A stretch of DNA of 64,000 nt. Source: Escherichia phage vB_EcoM-172859UKE1. The notes beneath the pieces were generated by a model. The model worked only from the letters and a program-made list of their open reading frames with translations, was not told the DNA's origin and did no database searches. The translations under genes and the position numbers were made by a program. Shown here piece after piece: positions 3,133 through 52,055 of the stretch (position 1 is the stretch's first letter; every line of letters starts with the position of its first letter). The DNA lies in sequence record MZ234025.1; one strand, written 5' to 3'.

Positions 3133-3795
3133 TTAATAATAGCCGAAATCTTGAACAGAATCTTTAATTACAATCTGGTCGAAACGAGGAACATGATTAG
3201 CCTCAGACGCCGGATTCTGTGAGAAAAAGTTTGGTGCTGTTAAAGTACCAGTCATGGTATCGCCTTTACGCAATACGCGGGAATTTGCGTTATCCGTAAC
3301 AATATTTATTCGTCCATCAACATAATCTTTTCTTGTGAGATCATTTGCTGCAACCGGAGCAGTAGCGTTAGAACGGACAGGACCAATTGCATAAAAACCG
3401 CCCTTAGTGCTGATATCACCAGTACGAGCGTTAATAACAACAGTTCGGTCTGCTGAACCTTGTGATGACTTAAAACCAATACCATTCCACGAAACGATGT
3501 CAATATTTGCCATATCAAAAGTAGCTGCATCACCGTTACCTGGATAAACACCACACTGTTGACTACTACCTACAGTAGGAACATGTACGCCTCCGTTAAA
3601 TCGAACAGTTGCAGCGTAAGTACCGCCATTAGCTTTAGAAACGAAATCGTTATCAGCCGCTTGTGGTTTATTATATTCTGAATAGAGTTTAAACGTTTTA
3701 TACAGGACGTCATCACCTGCTGGCATTAAAGGGAAATTACCTTGATGCCATATGACAGCACCGCCAGTTGTACTACCAGCTTTTAAATCGGCCAT
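3133..3795 (-). CDS. 36: long tail fiber distal connector (T4 gp36-like)
   Basis: 220-aa ORF (T4 gp36 ~221 aa) between 35 and 37; late promoter immediately upstream. Confidence 0.88.
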
Positions 3796-3819
3796 AGTTG
3801 TCTCCTTATATGTATACCA

Positions 3820-3827
3820 TATTTATA
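3820..3827 (-). promoter_or_regulatory. late promoter TATAAATA (gene 36)
   Basis: exact TATAAATA on minus strand ~25 nt upstream of start. Confidence 0.75.
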
Positions 3828-3852
3828 CAAAAATGGGAGACCGAAGTCTCCC
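3828..3852 (-). terminator. rho-independent terminator after gene 35
   Basis: GGGAGAC-UUCG-GUCUCCC then AUUUUUG on minus strand. Confidence 0.75.
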
Positions 3853-3857
3853 TAAAT

Positions 3858-4985
3858 TTATTCTGATGCTTCTTTAAATTCTTGTCCAAATACCTTACCG
3901 GTATCAGTTGAAGATTGAGTAGGTAATGTCATTATGTCTGGGGCACTTAAAGACTCTGAAACATAATTTACACGAATACCATTTATACCAAACTCAGCAG
4001 GTTTTGAAACGCTTCCATTACATGATACTTCAGTGAATATAACGTTTCTTAATCCACCTTGCCCGACTGGAGCTGTACGATAACAATAAATCGTGAACCC
4101 GTCAGCACCAGCAGGAATTTCTATGTAGTCTTCATATATCTTCCATTCACCTGCAGCCCCATCAAAGTTTGTATCCTTAAATGAAATAGGTGAAGTAGAA
4201 GGAGATTTAAAGAAACGAATAGAAAGTCGTGTCGTCCCTTGTGCTAACAAATCGGCATCAGCCATTAGTTGGAATTTCATATAAAGGAAATCTCCAGGCT
4301 TCAATTTATACCCAGCGAGAGGTGTAATAAGGGATGTTGTAGGCATCCTTTTAATTTCATTATTAGTACCTCCAACGGCAGATAAAAATGTGTCTGTCGA
4401 TTCATACGTACGACTAGGGAAGCCGGTAGCACCAATATCGTCGATCGTGTCATACACAACATCAAGTGGTGTACTATAGTCGGTTGAAGTTTTCTTATTA
4501 CTATACTTAATATGTTCTAGTGCTATAGCATTCTTACCAGAAATATAAAATGCCGAATAAGAAATGTCCACTATATTTAAAACTTGTTGAGCTAATGGAA
4601 TAGCAGAACTTCCGGCTTTATTAAACCATGTAAGAACTTCAGGCGGAAAGTTTGTTTTAGCGTTAGTAACAAGAGCAAATATAAAATTTGAAGCATATGT
4701 GTCCATGAAAGTAACAAATGCACTTGACGTTGTGTCGTTTTCAGTAGAGAAATTATATGACTTAGATTCAACTACTGCACCTGTTGTAGGATTTATTACA
4801 CGAACGTTTAATCCAACAGAAAAAACCTGGGACCCAAGTGGATTATCCTGGAACTTAATATAAGCAGGAGATGTTGATAGCGGACAAGAGCCCGCTATGC
4901 TTAATTTAAATCGTACTGAATTGCTTTCCGATAAAAATGGCGTTTGGACGTATCCTTGTCCAAACTTAGCCATAAATTTTTCCAT
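3858..4985 (-). CDS. 35: long tail fiber hinge protein (T4 gp35-like)
   Basis: 375-aa ORF, synteny 34-35-36-37, followed by UUCG hairpin terminator. Confidence 0.85.
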   Translation of the reverse strand: MEKFMAKFGQGYVQTPFLSESNSVRFKLSIAGSCPLSTSPAYIKFQDNPLGSQVFSVGLNVRVINPTTGAVVESKSYNFSTENDTTSSAFVTFMDTYASNFIFALVTNAKTNFPPEVLTWFNKAGSSAIPLAQQVLNIVDISYSAFYISGKNAIALEHIKYSNKKTSTDYSTPLDVVYDTIDDIGATGFPSRTYESTDTFLSAVGGTNNEIKRMPTTSLITPLAGYKLKPGDFLYMKFQLMADADLLAQGTTRLSIRFFKSPSTSPISFKDTNFDGAAGEWKIYEDYIEIPAGADGFTIYCYRTAPVGQGGLRNVIFTEVSCNGSVSKPAEFGINGIRVNYVSESLSAPDIMTLPTQSSTDTGKVFGQEFKEASE

Positions 4986-4993
4986 AATACCTC

Positions 4994-7900
4994 TTATTCA
5001 ATCCACTCGAATTTAACAGATTTATTCACAGGGTCTGGAATAATGCGGACATTACCAATCCTTAAGAAATCCCTTATTGTCAAGTTTCCGATTGTTGCAT
5101 TATCAGAAGGTAAAGCACCAATATCAGAAGGTTGAGGAGGGTTTCCACCATCAAATACCTGAACAAAACTTGACCAAGAATTTTTGGTTTTCTGCCATGT
5201 ACGTGTCCAACGGGTTGTACGTGCTTCTGGAGTTGTTGGATAAGTAATCCAATCTTGGTAAAGTGAATCAAGTGTGTTACCAAACTGAGTCAGTGTACCA
5301 GGAGATTTAACTTCTTCGCCACGTTCTAAGTATGGAAGCCCAGTCACTTCATTAGTTTTTTCAACCATTTTAAAATAACCTGGGAACTGGTTATAAGTGG
5401 CTGAATCGTTAATATCAATTGACCAGAATCCTACATTATCAGATGTTGGCGCACGGGTATATAAATCGGATGTTTTAGTACCCTGAGAACGAATTCTCGA
5501 GTTAACAGTTAAACCGCCTGAATTTATAGTAGCACCTTTGGCAATGATTAAGCCTTCACCAATCGTTACTTGGCCAGATGCATTATTAATAGCCAAAGGA
5601 CGTAATCCATTAAATCCGCCAGTCTGATCACCCGATGCAGTGAGCATAAAATAGGTATTAGCAGCATCATTGCGAATAAAGAATCCGTAATCACCACTAA
5701 TTGCTCTGAAAGCATTTGCAGACTTGCTAATGAATTCACCATTGGCTGTAACTGAACGACCAAATGTTGCAACGCCATTCGCATTTAACGTGCCTGAAGC
5801 GTTAACATTTATTGGCATCACAGTACCGTTAATGCTAAACGTTATATTCCCAGCTTTATTACGTTGAGAATAAAAGTGATTAGATGTTTCATCACCAACT
5901 TCAAACACAGTCGAACGAGACGTATCACTTCCACCACCAAACTGATTTCCCCAAACTCTGATAGACATCGTCTGCGCTGGGTTAGTTCCAGTCTGAGGTC
6001 CTTTTTCAAAAATCAGACGAGTTGCCGTTCCGGTATTAGAAATAGTTAATGTACTATTTGCCGAAACTGAACCACCAAACGTAGCAGTACTAGATGATAC
6101 AAGAGGGGCACTCAGATTCGTTTGTTGAGTTAAGGTTAGTGAACCATTAACCGTCTGTGCAATGTCCCTACGAATGAACTGAGATGAATCTAGGCCATCT
6201 AATAAATTTGCGTCAGCAGCTTTTGCTTTTAATGGCAAATAGTTAGCAAGTACACGGTTTAATTCATATGGTGATACCGCATAACTATTTTTCTCATATG
6301 ATTCTAAAGGTTGTGTTGAACCAACTGTATCATTACCAACAAATGTAATAGAACCGGATGAAGTTTTAACGAATCCACGAATCGCCGTAGTAGCAGCCCA
6401 TGTCGGTTCAGACTGGACAATCCATTTTAAATTCTTAGGAGATACAGCAGTATTAGCAGAAGTTCCTGTTACAGTTTCAGCCTGAGTAGCAACCTTAATT
6501 ACGCCTTCAGACGTTTCAGTGGACTTAGTCCCTAAAAGCTTTTTAGGAGTAATAAGAACATCATCTAAAGTTCCTGCATTAGATTCTGCCTGGGTCGCTA
6601 CGCGAAGTGTACCACGTTGTGTTTCATTTGCTTTAGAAATATCAAGAGTATAATGGTTCCACAAGGTTCCTTCTTCAATAAGTCCGGAATCAGAATTAAC
6701 ACTGGTACGGTCAGAAGAATCAAAATGAGTTTTAATTTTCAGTGGAGTTGAGATACGAGTATCATCAGTTCCAGTATCAAATTCAACTTGCGTAGCAATT
6801 TCGGCTATGCCGGATAATCCTTCCGTAGCTTTCCTATCATTTAACGTCTTAGGCGTTACTGCACGTGTATAATCAGTCCCAGCATTAGTTTCTGTTTGCG
6901 TAGCAATTTCAATTAAACCAATACGTCCATCAGTAGATGTTTTCTTATGTAGTGTTTCAGGAGTTACTACAGCGTGAGAATAACCTGCTTGAGATTGTCC
7001 AGCAATTACTTCACTATCAACAGCTAAAATTACTGCACCTTGTTGAGCATAAGTTGCTTTATATTGGTCAAGGGCTTTAGGAGAAATAGTTAAATTATTT
7101 ACGGTTTTATTATAAACGTTAGTGCCTGCGGCCCCACGAGTTTCAGCAGGAGTAGCAGAAGTAGTTGATACATATTTAACTATACCAGATAGTGTTTCAG
7201 AACCCTGACGTGCCTGCAATTTCTTAGGTGTAATAATCGTTGTGTCATCAAGACCAGCATCGGTTTCAGTCTGAGTAGCAATTTCAGCAAGTCCGCGACG
7301 AGTTTCAGTTGCTGTACGCTCATTTAGTTTTTTAGGCGTAACAATAGTATCGTCAACAAATGTTGCTGTGGAATTCTGGTTAACTTGTGCTGTTGTAGCA
7401 ATTTTAGCGATACCACGTCGAGCTTCAGTTGCTGTACGATTTGCCAACGTTTCAGGAGTAATAGCCACTTCTTTAGCTGGAGTATTCTCTAAATCAACAT
7501 TTGCTTGCGCTTGAGTAGCAAGAGCAATAACACCTAAACGAGCTCGTGTAGCATCAGTTCCAGCATCAACACGTTCTACCGTAGGGACATTCTGTTGCAC
7601 AACCCAATAATGGGTGTCAGAATCGGTATCTTCAATATATGCTAATTCTAATACAGGAACATATGAATTAGTACCATTGAATTCCAATTCAGTAACAGAA
7701 ACCCATTGAGCATCAGGTGGATATTCAGAACGTTTAGGGAACTGAAGCAATGCAACAGAAGAAGCAATTGTATCACCTTCGGCAGCTTTAATTTTTACTG
7801 TTTGGCCTTTACGCATGTAGTTCATTGAAATTTTAACAGTGTCACCACTCAAAATTCCGCTAGGCAGCGTAAGAGTAATAGTTCCGGTTGTAGCGTTATT

Positions 7901-12160: not shown

Positions 12161-12185
12161 GGGAGACTTCGGTCTCCCTTTTGAG
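12161..12185 (+). terminator. rho-independent terminator after gene 32
   Basis: GGGAGAC-TTCG-GTCTCCC then TTTTG. Confidence 0.8.
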
Positions 12186-27068: not shown

Positions 27069-27090
27069 GGGAGACTTCGGTCTCCCTTTT
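27069..27090 (+). terminator. rho-independent terminator after the 59-aa basic ORF
   Basis: GGGAGAC-TTCG-GTCTCCC then TTTTG. Confidence 0.8.
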
Positions 27091-48782: not shown

Positions 48783-50063
48783 TTAGTCTATAATAATTTT
48801 AGGCAATTTAACACCGAGTAAAACAGACAAGTCTGAACGTCCTGCCATTTTATCCATGTCCCCACCATCAATTATTCTCGCTTCTTTTTCGTCTTTTGCT
48901 ACTGTGTAAGGATTTGCTGATAAAGCATATCTAACCAATAATCCGATAGACGGTTGCAAGCTTTCTGGATCAACTACAACTTTAAAAGCACCGACATGTT
49001 CCGGGTCATCTAAATCTACTCCTTCAGTGTATGGAGCATAAAAGATTGACCCTACAATTTCTTTTTCGCCGATATTTTCTACAACACCCACAACAACATA
49101 ATCTAACGGGCTGTTGGTATCGCAGTAAAGAGGTAATCCATTTGCCAAGAATCCATAAGCATTTTGTGAAAGATACTTGTCATCTTCTGGCTTATGTTTT
49201 AACCAACCAGAAGCAGCAAGAATAGCAGCTGCACGAGCTGAGGCTACACAAAACGTTGCAGTATAAGTTGTCTCTTTTTGAATGTGTGATACCATTTCAC
49301 ACACCATTCGATATAATGAACGACCTGCTTCTGGAGCGGATGCATAACTCAAGTCAATAAATCCGGTGTCAGTAATTCCAGTAACTTTATAACGTTTCGA
49401 TACAGTAATTAAAGACTGAAGAATATCTTTATTAATTTCATCAGCCATTTCAGTAGCAAGCAAATCTTCTAAGAAGTTAGGGGCATCAAATCCATTAGCT
49501 TCCAAATCTTGCGCTAATTCAACCGTGAGGCCAGTTTTAAGTTTACGAGATTTGACTGAAGTTTGCCATTTATTAATCTGGAATCTTGCATCAGAAATTT
49601 CGCTACCAGAGCTTTCAAATTTGCTTGTTACCGCTGCATCTGAAAATAACCGTACCTTTAAATGAACGATTGCAATCTGAAGAGCTAATTCTAGATCACT
49701 TTCTTGAATATCTGCAAATGGTGCATCTTCTAACACTTTATAGACGATATTATTATATTTGAAAAAATCGCCTTTATTTAGTGTGACTTTTGATTCTTCT
49801 GTGAGTTCGGTAATTTTTTCTCGGTCTACATATCCAGCTTCACCCGCATAAGTAGCACCAGTTTTAAATGTGAATTCGTTATCCGGGTTAAGATATTTGA
49901 TACCATAAAAAGCAGCAACAGGTTGATTAGTTCTTTGTGTTGCTACAATGTCAGAATATATTAATTTAGTCGTAGCGCGAGTCAAAGCAACGAGATTTGG
50001 GCGACCAATTGAGTTGCTAGTAGACGTTGTAGATTCACGCAATAATTTTTGGATTTTACTCAT
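48783..50063 (-). CDS. 24: head vertex protein gp24
   Basis: 426 aa, capsid-fold paralog downstream of gene 23, late promoter upstream. Confidence 0.93.
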   Translation of the reverse strand: MSKIQKLLRESTTSTSNSIGRPNLVALTRATTKLIYSDIVATQRTNQPVAAFYGIKYLNPDNEFTFKTGATYAGEAGYVDREKITELTEESKVTLNKGDFFKYNNIVYKVLEDAPFADIQESDLELALQIAIVHLKVRLFSDAAVTSKFESSGSEISDARFQINKWQTSVKSRKLKTGLTVELAQDLEANGFDAPNFLEDLLATEMADEINKDILQSLITVSKRYKVTGITDTGFIDLSYASAPEAGRSLYRMVCEMVSHIQKETTYTATFCVASARAAAILAASGWLKHKPEDDKYLSQNAYGFLANGLPLYCDTNSPLDYVVVGVVENIGEKEIVGSIFYAPYTEGVDLDDPEHVGAFKVVVDPESLQPSIGLLVRYALSANPYTVAKDEKEARIIDGGDMDKMAGRSDLSVLLGVKLPKIIID

Positions 50064-50090
50064 TGCATTTTTTCCTTATGTGATATAGAT

Positions 50091-50098
50091 TATTTATA
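50091..50098 (-). promoter_or_regulatory. late promoter TATAAATA (gene 24)
   Basis: exact match on minus strand ~28 nt upstream of ATG. Confidence 0.75.
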
Positions 50099-50104
50099 AA
50101 GATT

Positions 50105-50134
50105 GTTTACAACGTATTTGGTATGTGATACTAT
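50105..50134 (+). promoter_or_regulatory. T4-type early promoter driving the antisense 89-aa ORF
   Basis: GTTTAC 50105-50110, 18-nt spacer, TACTAT 50129-50134. Confidence 0.65.
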
Positions 50135-50164
50135 AGACTTATCAACTACAGAGGAGTAAACAAA

Positions 50165-50434
50165 ATGACTAAAGCACGTTTCTTACGAGATACTTTAAAA
50201 GTTCTGGAAGCTGAAGCAGTTAAGTTAGTAGAAAAATATGGTGCAAAAGTTAATGGTAATGCCTTCAACAAAGTATGGATGAAAGTTGATTCTGAAGCTC
50301 GAGCTAAAGGTTATTGGGCCACTGATAAACTTGCATCATTCAAAAACAAAGACGGTTCTCCAGCATATGTCCAAGAAGGTATGCCTAATTGGCAAAATAT
50401 TTTGAAAACTTACATCGAAATTGCACAGAAATAA
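50165..50434 (+). CDS. hypothetical protein, antisense to late cluster
   Basis: 89-aa ORF with GAGGAG SD and consensus early promoter 50105-50134. Confidence 0.55.
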   Translation: MTKARFLRDTLKVLEAEAVKLVEKYGAKVNGNAFNKVWMKVDSEARAKGYWATDKLASFKNKDGSPAYVQEGMPNWQNILKTYIEIAQK

Positions 50435-50435
50435 A

Positions 50436-50462
50436 ACCAAAAATGGGAGACCGAAGTCTCCC
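50436..50462 (-). terminator. rho-independent terminator after gene 23
   Basis: GGGAGAC-UUCG-GUCUCCC then AUUUUUGG on minus strand; 25-nt identity with the gene 35 terminator. Confidence 0.8.
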
Positions 50463-50486
50463 AAAATAAGATTTAATCAATTAAGA

Positions 50487-52055
50487 TTAGATGCCTTTTA
50501 CATATACACGTCTAAAGTAAGCGTTCTTACCAAGGCTGTTCAGGATAGACGGCATACCGGACTGGATGCGAGCACCTGGAGCCTGCAGGGAACTTTCAGC
50601 AAACGGGTTAACACCGATACCGTAACGAGTTTTAAAGCCCATTACCGGCTGGAAGTTCTTAGGATCGGAACCACGCAGTGGGGTAAGTGCAACGTAAGGA
50701 GCATAGTAAATACCTGCATCCATTTCGTTAGCGCCTTTGTAACCAACGGTGAAGTAATCCTGTTTAGCATACTGGTCGATGTATACGCGGTATTTACCGC
50801 CAAGTACACCGGCAAATACAGACTTAGTAGTGTCGGTATTAAAACCAGAAGCCAGACCCTGTGCAGCGTAAGAAATACCAGTATCAACTGAAGCCAGTAC
50901 GTTAACTACGTTACGGGAAGCGATAATGAAGTTACCTTCACCACGACCGGTTTGACGAGCAATTTCAACTGCTTCTTTATCAATCTGGAACAACAGAGCT
51001 TTAAAGCTTTCACCGGCCCAACGAGCACCACGGATATCAATCGGGTCCTGGAAGTCGAATACACCAGCTTTAGAACCAACGATATTAGTCATACCAGATT
51101 TACCAACCTGAGCGGAGTAGTTAATCCAGTCAACAACTTCACGGTTGATTTCCAGCATAATTTCAGTAGCAAGAATACCACTCAGTTCAGCATCAGCATC
51201 CATACCGTGTACTGCACGGAGGTCTTGTGCCAATTCGATGGAGTAAGCTGCTTTCAGCTGACGAGATTTAGCTTCAATAACTTGTTTGTCGATACGGAAG
51301 CCCATTTCGTTCCACGGGTTGTCGGTAGAACCATTGAAGCCTTCCTGAAGTTCAGCGATAGAAGTAGCCATACCTTCAGCGATTTCTACCAGTACACCTG
51401 CTTCCATTTGTTTGATAATTTCTGCATCCAGCAATTCTGGGGTAGAAGCCTCAGCGCTAATGGTAACAACTTTAGTGGCCTGAAGATAAGTAGAACCAGT
51501 TTCAGCGAAGAAGTGATAATAAATGTCGCCGGCTACAGTGGACATACCAGCGGTAACAGGAGCAAATGCTTTTGCAGCACCCTGACCAGAGAACATCGCA
51601 TCTGGAGCATACATCGGATGGAAAGCTTCTTTAGCGTCAGCAGCGATAGGGTCTTTACCATATACTGCACGGAGAGCAAATACCTGACCGGTAGGGCTGT
51701 TCATAGGCTGAACACCACAAATATCAAAAGCGATCAGATTAGGAATAGCACGACGAACCATACCCATAACTGCCGGCCCAATTTGGGTTACTGCACCAGA
51801 GGTTTGACCTGCTGCGATGTTCTGAGCATTATAACCGTGGTCACCACCAATTTCAGCTTCGGTCAAGAAAGAACCAAATGCCTGAGCGATTTTCTCGTCT
51901 TTATATTCAGGGGATACTTCGAAATCTTTTTCCTGGTTTTCGAAGATTTTAGCGATAATAGCCTGCTTGCTATTAGCGATTTCCGGCAGGCCTTCACCTT
52001 CCAGCAGTTCTTTCCATTTGTCTACGAGCTGAGCTTTAGTTTTGATAGTAGTCAT
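50487..52055 (-). CDS. 23: major capsid protein gp23
   Basis: 522 aa, matches T4 gp23; GC-richer, highly-expressed-gene codon usage. Confidence 0.98.
   Translation of the reverse strand: MTTIKTKAQLVDKWKELLEGEGLPEIANSKQAIIAKIFENQEKDFEVSPEYKDEKIAQAFGSFLTEAEIGGDHGYNAQNIAAGQTSGAVTQIGPAVMGMVRRAIPNLIAFDICGVQPMNSPTGQVFALRAVYGKDPIAADAKEAFHPMYAPDAMFSGQGAAKAFAPVTAGMSTVAGDIYYHFFAETGSTYLQATKVVTISAEASTPELLDAEIIKQMEAGVLVEIAEGMATSIAELQEGFNGSTDNPWNEMGFRIDKQVIEAKSRQLKAAYSIELAQDLRAVHGMDADAELSGILATEIMLEINREVVDWINYSAQVGKSGMTNIVGSKAGVFDFQDPIDIRGARWAGESFKALLFQIDKEAVEIARQTGRGEGNFIIASRNVVNVLASVDTGISYAAQGLASGFNTDTTKSVFAGVLGGKYRVYIDQYAKQDYFTVGYKGANEMDAGIYYAPYVALTPLRGSDPKNFQPVMGFKTRYGIGVNPFAESSLQAPGARIQSGMPSILNSLGKNAYFRRVYVKGI

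Follow-up and report, generated by a model that had tools for sequence, protein, structure and literature searches.

A small transcription unit runs between the capsid genes 24 and 23 of Escherichia phage vB_EcoM-172859UKE1, on the strand opposite to both of them. We analysed this 23/24 cassette in a stretch of 64,000 nt of the phage genome (MZ234025.1), hereafter called the window, which belongs to a Mosigvirus. The cassette consists of an early-type promoter and an open reading frame (ORF) for a protein of 89 residues, and it occupies a slot whose edges are regulatory elements of the two capsid genes. From left to right, the locus holds:

48783 to 50063, minus strand: gene 24 (capsid vertex protein; ORF of 426 residues, named from the annotation of near-identical records), left flank of the slot
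50098 to 50091, minus strand: late promoter of gene 24, TATAAATA, recognised from the sequence and annotated as a T4 late promoter in OL960576
50105 to 50134, plus strand: T4-type early (sigma-70) promoter, GTTTAC(A), 17-nt spacer, TG-n-TACTAT, recognised from the sequence and annotated in OL960576
50135 to 50164, plus strand: 5′ untranslated region (UTR), with the module AGACTTATCAAC at 50135-50146 and then the Shine-Dalgarno sequence (SD) GAGGAG at 50151-50156, from promoter alignment and pattern search
50165 to 50434, plus strand: 89-residue ORF, allele type A of the family PHROG 6003; basic, soluble, predicted three helices and a beta-hairpin
50444 to 50463, minus strand: right edge of the slot and intrinsic terminator of gene 23, a GC hairpin whose loop reads UUCG on the minus strand
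50487 to 52055, minus strand: gene 23 (major capsid protein; ORF of 522 residues, named from the annotation of near-identical records), right flank of the slot

A preliminary description, made from the letters of the window alone, had reported a plus-strand unit between the minus-strand genes 23 and 24, with an early promoter, a GAGGAG SD, the 89-residue ORF, the terminator hairpin of gene 23 and, at 50091-50098, the late promoter of gene 24; each element is present where it had been placed. The GTTTAC of the early promoter (50105-50110) overlaps the sigma-70 hexamer TTTACA (50106-50111), which is followed after a 17-nt spacer, with TG at 50126-50127, by TACTAT at 50129-50134, and the stretch upstream of the promoter is AT-rich. 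The SD lies 8 nt from the ATG at 50165 and is unsequestered in the predicted RNA fold. The early promoter stands back to back with the late promoter of gene 24, with 6 nt between the latter and the -35 hexamer, and this spacing is kept in 11 ORF-bearing loci where the promoter pattern matched. Under a strict pattern, the early promoter itself is kept in 12 of 14 related loci. At the other end, the hairpin is a perfect 8-bp GC-rich stem with arms TGGGAGAC and GTCTCCCA, and its free energy amounts to -13.5 kcal/mol on the plus strand (z = -4.9) and -14.4 kcal/mol on the minus strand (z = -3.7). Since the T-run and the UUCG loop occur only on the minus strand, we assign it to gene 23 as its terminator. 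An identical hairpin closes the slot in Dhakavirus, Winklervirus and metagenomic loci. An Rfam scan of the whole window matched no family, so that no known RNA element lies in the cassette.

Coding status, spread and predicted fold of the 89-residue protein

The 89-residue ORF is a real gene under purifying selection. Of the 239 phage records matched by tblastn, 237 hold a full-length homologue (at least 80% of the query covered), and nearly all of the approximately 120 type A copies read full-length. Residues 1-89 align with positions 1-90 of the 90 positions of PHROG 6003, a family of unknown function (E = 2.1e-45). The codon usage is frame-specific, with a log-likelihood of +0.65 per codon in frame versus -0.8 and -1.1 in the other frames. 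Across informative pairs, non-synonymous differences (pN, 0.21-0.28) stay well under synonymous ones (pS, 0.58-0.81), as in the window versus the related locus L013 (0.21 versus 0.81) or VR20 versus QL01 (0.23 versus 0.72). The gene evolves much faster than its flanks: between VR20 and QL01, amino acid identity is 62% for the ORF protein, 96% for gp23 and 89% for gp24.

The cassette is not an unnoticed feature. Many Mosigvirus genomes, among them PhAPEC2, JS09, HX01 and APCEc01, match the region at 99-99.9% identity, and the ORF is annotated as a hypothetical protein in more than 200 records. The record of SA79RD (OL960576) annotates a T4-type early promoter, a late promoter and terminators at the matching positions, and the same promoter and terminator features are listed under the match of SA35RD (OL960577). 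With these GenBank entries, the cassette is not new as annotation.

Besides being conserved, the gene is dispensable, as it is broken in RB69, mogra and 310Ecol104PP. In the RB69 reference (L007, NC_004928, 9240-9610), the copy contains a cluster of mismatches, a +1 indel and a later -1 indel, and it is annotated as two ORFs, ORF188c and ORF189c. This broken copy could be a real pseudogene of the laboratory strain or could reflect errors in the old sequence; a literature search on the RB69 ORF names gave no match. Phage mogra and 310Ecol104PP carry shortened copies.

The family comprises two allele types, A and B, with only about 30-37% identity between them. The window has type A, as do most Mosigvirus genomes and the metagenomic members P0004-P0006, whereas Dhakavirus, Gaprivervirus and a part of the Mosigvirus genomes have type B. 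The PHROG 6003 profile also matches type B members and the distant homologues P0021 and P0022, and the invariant positions of the family are NGNA (30-33), W51 and Q70. T-even members are hydrophilic proteins with a pI of 9.2-9.9 (about 9.6 in the window), essentially no cysteine and no hydrophobic segment. AlphaFold2 gave confident models for both alleles (pLDDT 89.4 and 93.7) with a common architecture: a helix at 3-25, a second at 31-48, a beta-hairpin and a third helix at about 76-88. Structure prediction, which the preliminary description had recommended, thus yielded a confident model of three helices and a beta-hairpin that appears to have no known relative among PDB structures. Its remark that the protein has no recognisable motif agrees with our searches, since no match was obtained in Pfam, NCBIfam, PADLOC or PDB. 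Neither sequence nor fold similarity was detected to characterised anti-defence inhibitors with solved structures.

Several weaker leads were discarded. The giant immunoglobulin-repeat proteins P0023 and P0024, which came out of an exhaustive profile search, owe their scores to summed weak repeats; a single Big_2-like repeat reaches an hhalign probability of 4%, and the model shows helix in the matched part of the query. With Pfam DUF4859 (E = 0.0029, short of the curated cut-off), only 2 of 12 family members gave a match, and other weak matches are inconsistent. The match of P0016 to an NCBIfam CBASS cyclase is noise (13.5 bits versus a cut-off of 200). The JGI label "NADPH-dependent curcumin reductase CurA" on P0006 is evidently an annotation error, as a 90-residue phage protein in the 23/24 slot cannot be that enzyme. 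Finally, P0020 (160 residues, from a contig of 701 bp) repeats in its last ~30 residues a type B segment and is probably an assembly chimera.

Homologues also occur outside T-even phages. P0021 (E = 4e-19) is encoded on a Vequintavirinae-like metagenomic contig, among arrayed small genes that all run in one direction and include a T7 gp0.6-type domain. Its closest cultured relative (61% identity) comes from ABPH49, a phage of the Vequintavirinae, where the neighbours in the array are likewise small hypothetical genes. P0022 (E = 6e-13) lies on the Serratia-siphovirus-like contig L026 between a tail-tip gene and replication genes, with a terminator and a TTGACG-17-TATATT promoter of its own in front and a hairpin behind. 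These contexts indicate that the protein spreads as an autonomous unit with no fixed link to capsid genes or to an endonuclease. They also bear on the view that the ORF is a non-functional chance frame or a decaying remnant. The broken copies and the lack of a known function would fit such a remnant, which we nevertheless regard as extremely improbable given a pN far below pS, a frame-specific codon usage, full-length reading in 237 of 239 records, confident models and homologues at E = 4e-19 in other phage families.

An exchangeable slot between genes 23 and 24

Wherever a T-even phage carries the ORF, it is found at the 23/24 junction, encoded on the strand opposite to the capsid genes. A frame made of late promoter, early promoter, cargo and hairpin is conserved across Mosigvirus, Dhakavirus, Gaprivervirus, the Tequatrovirus T4 and the Winklervirus Gravdalen. 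Comparing the junction across T-even genomes, as the preliminary description had proposed, revealed five states of the slot among the genera sampled:

Empty slot of 80-90 bp, terminator and late promoter only: RB14, Marfa, Mineola, Moon and Kanagawavirus Q7622 (five genera)
Type A ORF: the window and most Mosigvirus
Type B ORF: QL01, MX01 and VR20
Type B ORF followed 3 nt later by a segD-like GIY-YIG gene: 04086, ATK47, LF82-3 and JK45
Endonuclease alone: T4 (segD) and Gravdalen

Krischvirus phiS (L019, 1821-2448) shows another state, with a 23/24 spacer of 626 bp and a 50-residue ORF on the strand of the capsid genes. The statement in the preliminary description that a seg homing endonuclease sits at this junction in T4 is correct, segD being located there on the opposite strand, and its idea of an insertion hotspot is borne out by the alternation of empty slot, ORF, ORF plus segD-like endonuclease and endonuclease alone, and by whole cassettes that have moved between genera. 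Its statement that the small gene replaces seg applies to the window, which has no endonuclease, but the two are not exclusive, as some relatives carry both in one operon.

The T4 locus resembles that of the window in its slot, in its antisense orientation and in the frame of late promoter, (G/A)TTTAC-18-TAnnAT, cargo and GC hairpin. Upstream of segD, the sequence ATTTAC-18-TATTAT (L006, NC_000866, 3733-3800, minus strand of the locus) aligns with the GTTTAC promoter of the other genera and lies 5 nt from the late promoter of gene 24. According to a 2010 review, a segD-specific promoter could not be found (PMC2988022). In time-resolved omics of T4, the segD cargo is transcribed early; the gene is classed as "early RNA, middle protein", and the SegD protein was detected (PMC9697503 supplement). 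In the alignment, segD has in front of it a somewhat degenerate version of the early promoter found in the window, in agreement with its early RNA class. The cargo differs, since the 89-residue protein has no nuclease motif and no sequence relation to SegD. No Pfam domain, and hence no GIY-YIG domain, was found in the ORF, and a SegD ortholog exists in relatives and not in the window. Conversely, the 60 tblastn matches listed for the ORF include no record named T4 or Tequatrovirus, except JK45, which has Mosigvirus capsid genes. JK45 (L021, MK962757) is filed as a Tequatrovirus, and its genes 24 and 23 are 93-100% identical to those of the window over most of their length.

The segD-like protein of the relatives is 57% identical to T4 SegD over its full length, and it occurs at an identity of at least 80% in about 35 records. 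Aligned with its orthologs, T4 SegD is matched from its second ATG onwards, which lies three codons downstream of the start given in the annotation. In 04086, the SD of the endonuclease gene lies inside the end of the type B ORF. Between 04086 and the carriers with a Mosigvirus backbone (L004 versus L020-L022), the endonuclease genes are 94-100% identical in their 5′ half and 64-73% in their 3′ half. The diverged 3′ half suggests a swapped C-terminal (DNA-binding) domain.

Exchange of cargo between genera is best seen in LF82-3, ATK47 and JK45. These phages are about 94-100% identical to the window across genes 24 and 23 and, between the edges of the slot, 91-100% identical to Dhakavirus 04086. 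The left crossovers differ, being located at the SD GAGGAG in LF82-3, within the TATCAA motif of the UTR in ATK47 and upstream in the gene 24 leader in JK45. As read from these alignments, a Mosigvirus backbone was joined to Dhakavirus-type cargo in three independent events, each with its crossover within the conserved regulatory module. The metagenomic locus L011 displays a different combination, with Dhaka/Gapriver-like capsid genes (91-93% amino acid identity) and a type A ORF (62% identical to the window and 27-29% to type B). Judged by these mosaics, whole cassettes have moved between genera, and a homing endonuclease probably helped this movement. Given the presence of the endonuclease in the transplanted cassettes, nuclease-driven co-conversion is a plausible engine of the transfer.

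An extension of this role to the ORF itself would make it part of homing-endonuclease biology: it could aid SegD-like enzymes by translational coupling or target choice, protect from a co-infecting SegD, or carry or disrupt the homing site, its spread then being co-conversion. The order of type B ORF and segD-like gene, 3 nt apart on the same strand in JK45, LF82-3, ATK47 and 04086, fits this view, as do the joint travel of the B allele and the endonuclease in Mosigvirus backbones and the endonuclease that T4 and Gravdalen hold alone in the same frame (with ~35 endonuclease-bearing records in all). We still find it rather unlikely, as most carriers of the ORF have no endonuclease (the window, QL01, MX01, VR20, L008, L011 and L013), purifying selection acts on the ORF in such endonuclease-free lineages, the Vequintavirinae-like and siphovirus-like homologues have no endonuclease next to them, and the enzymes of T4 and Gravdalen manage without the ORF.

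The constant position between genes 23 and 24 in T-even carriers could alternatively point to a capsid-related role, either as an assembly helper of gp23/gp24 or as an internal head protein of the kind of T4 IPI-III, which would be packaged and then injected. The motif L-x-E is that of the T4 prohead-protease site, and the tripeptide L21-V22-E23 resembles it; a faint PHROG match to an "internal virion protein" family was also obtained, at a non-significant E = 0.09. This sole L-x-E (21-23) falls in the middle of helix 1 of the confident model and E23 is not invariant, while the N-terminus of the protein does not appear to resemble the T4 capsid-targeting sequence, which we take to count against such a role. 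Moreover, the promoter is of the early type only and not late, five genera that have the same capsid genes leave the slot empty, viable phages exist in which the gene is broken, and homologues in non-T4 phages lie far from capsid genes. A capsid role is in our view very unlikely, and the idea of an internal head protein cleaved by gp21 was dropped, as alignment, model and gene contexts do not support it.

The unit might finally matter as DNA or RNA. Late capsid expression would then be tuned by the pair of divergent promoters or by early transcripts that run convergently into gene 23, and the ORF would be incidental. The early promoter does point into gene 23, no U-run follows the hairpin on that strand, which makes a read-through antisense RNA conceivable, and the early and late promoters are locked at their 6-nt spacing across ORF-bearing loci. 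It is nonetheless highly improbable as an account of the cassette. Purifying selection on the amino acid sequence is strong, the predicted fold is kept across ~30%-identical alleles, the bidirectional terminator of VR20 would block read-through, phages with an empty slot express genes 23 and 24 without the unit, and the protein family also occurs in unrelated contexts. Taken together, endonuclease-free carriers, empty slots, the early promoter, non-T4 contexts and purifying selection weaken the homing, the capsid and the purely transcriptional explanations.

Reused regulatory modules and likeness to PeSL cassettes

Both ends of the cassette are regulatory modules that are reused in the genome, as indicated by a promoter/UTR family and by exact copies of the hairpin. 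A generic sigma-70 scan showed no enrichment in the region (12 sites versus 17.1 expected), which by itself proves nothing. For the T4-type pattern GTTTAC-N16-18-TAnnnT, the window has 14 copies versus 2.8 +/- 1.5 expected; 13 of the 14 are on the plus strand, and most copies lie ~20-45 nt upstream of an ATG with an SD. An extended module, GTGATACTAT-AGACYTATCAAC-GAGGA-ATG, is common to several early promoters of the window and to the site of the 89-residue ORF. Likewise, the 18-nt hairpin GGGAGACTTCGGTCTCCC is present in four exact copies versus none expected. The two sets of elements are located as follows:

T4-type early promoters, all plus strand: 8911, 12210, 18926, 20108, 21514, 23640, 27123, 27567, 34484 and 47265
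Exact copies of the hairpin: 3835-3852 (minus strand), 12161-12178 (plus strand), 27069-27086 (plus strand) and 50445-50462 (minus strand)

The hairpin copies at 12161 and 27069 lie 28-31 nt upstream of the early promoters 12210 and 27123 and form true composites of the promoter-early stem-loop (PeSL) type. The copy at 3835 abuts the minus-strand late promoter 3827, an arrangement as in the empty 23/24 slot of other genera. The promoters 18926, 23640 and 34484 have an inverted repeat between -35 and -10, as in one PeSL subclass.

PeSLs have been described as regulatory cassettes in phages of the T4 type (Arbiol et al. 2010, PMC2839356; Comeau et al. 2014, PMC4122927). Their promoter consensus in the T4/PST type is TTTACW-N17-TAYWAT, a few of them sit within virion modules beside genes of unknown function, and modular shuffling of their cargo has been described (PMC2839356, PMC4122927). 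The 23/24 cassette shares several of these features: its early promoter fits the consensus, is AT-rich upstream and ends in an SD and the start codon of an ORFan, the module is repeated in the genome, and its cargo is swapped by recombination inside the module. It differs in other respects, as its promoter has no adjoining or internal stem-loop, its hairpin comes after the cargo and has the orientation that suits gene 23 on the opposite strand, a divergent late promoter takes the place upstream of the -35, and the exchanges are allelic replacements at one locus between genomes and not recombination between PeSLs or mini-circles. Indeed, neither strand has significant structure at 50064-50140 (z = +0.85 and +0.72), local hairpins around the early promoter reach -2.8 kcal/mol at best, and an inverted-repeat search of 50040-50480 returned the 3′ hairpin only. 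A canonical PeSL was therefore rejected and, with no stem-loop contiguous with the promoter, we call the cassette PeSL-like.

Possible role of the 89-residue protein

We consider it fairly probable that the locus is a non-essential accessory-gene cassette with an immediate-early promoter in an exchangeable PeSL-like slot, and that its product is an early binder of a host component, active in counter-defence or host modulation. The slot is bounded by the gene 24 late promoter and the gene 23 terminator hairpin, and the cassette brings the sigma-70 promoter and the 5′UTR/SD. Owing to this promoter of its own, of the T4 early type, transcription of the ORF by host RNA polymerase is expected within minutes of the start of infection, running antisense to the late genes on either side, and the same frame drives segD in T4. 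Homologous recombination inside the repeated promoter/UTR and hairpin modules allows phages to swap the cargo. The small, basic, soluble and phage-only protein may then act early and in stoichiometric amounts on a host component that it binds, be it a defence factor, some other protein or a nucleic acid, as a counter-defence or host-modulation factor that would be useful on some hosts only. A product that is small, basic, soluble, fast-evolving, patchy and horizontally exchanged is typical of such phage factors, which is what points to an early host-component binder.

Some observations weigh against this proposal. The early timing is deduced from the promoter type and by analogy with T4 segD, and the hairpin has no U-run on the strand of the ORF, which makes termination of the early transcript uncertain. 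The binding or inhibitory role is deduced from the properties of the product. The gene also falls outside the early-gene toxicity screen of the Mosigvirus AV110, where genes were chosen by T4 homology (bioRxiv 10.64898/2026.09.14.751387) and the 89-residue ORF was consequently not included. Besides, the patchy distribution could be due to hitch-hiking in a recombination hotspot and not to host-specific selection.

A more specific version of the host-binder proposal, which we put forward tentatively, is that the protein is a new factor of counter-defence or inter-phage competition with a fold absent from PDB, that the A and B alleles are arms-race variants of differing specificity, and that the spread of B reflects cross-genus hitch-hiking with the segD-like endonuclease in a shared promoter-terminator slot. 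If so, a selfish nuclease would distribute an adaptive gene.

Like a moron, the 23/24 cassette is a self-contained unit between genes that are adjacent in relatives, and it is dispensable, patchy and horizontally exchanged; the homologue on L026, with its own terminator, promoter and hairpin, follows the same plan. Classical morons, a concept of Hendrix and colleagues, are expressed from prophages, whereas the phage of the window is lytic and the unit has an immediate-early promoter. Among T-even phages, the small early proteins involved in host takeover or counter-defence include T4 Alc, AsiA, Arn, IPI* and Dmd. Together with Gp94/Emp of AV110 (bioRxiv 10.64898/2026.09.14.751387), they are similar to the 89-residue protein in size, predicted early expression, solubility, dispensability and fast divergence, but no sequence or structural similarity to any of them was detected. 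The cassette is thus ordinary but well defined, and a fair candidate for a role in host interaction or anti-defence, in line with the candidate role in host takeover or anti-defence named in the preliminary description. The gene is small and tractable, with its own early promoter, natural nulls in RB69 and mogra, two divergent alleles and homologues in three unrelated phage groups. The locus also offers a compact natural example of how T-even phages exchange accessory cargo while leaving essential capsid genes untouched.

Some minor observations concern the annotation and the neighbouring genes of the compared loci. The segD-like GIY-YIG gene (219-223 residues) is unannotated in ATK47 (L020, KT184309, 2882-3826) and in 04086 (L004, OR842557, 2771-3442). 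In ATK47, the small ORF is unannotated as well and gp24 is labelled "homing endonuclease", and in 04086 gene 23 is annotated as truncated (3502-4611) though an intact ORF of 519 residues spans 3502-5061. Gene 24 is a tandem double in Gaprivervirus, Dhakavirus QL01, Marfavirus, Kanagawavirus and metagenomic relatives (L002, L003, L008, L011, L015 and L018), and it is present as a single copy in the window, T4, RB14 and MX01.

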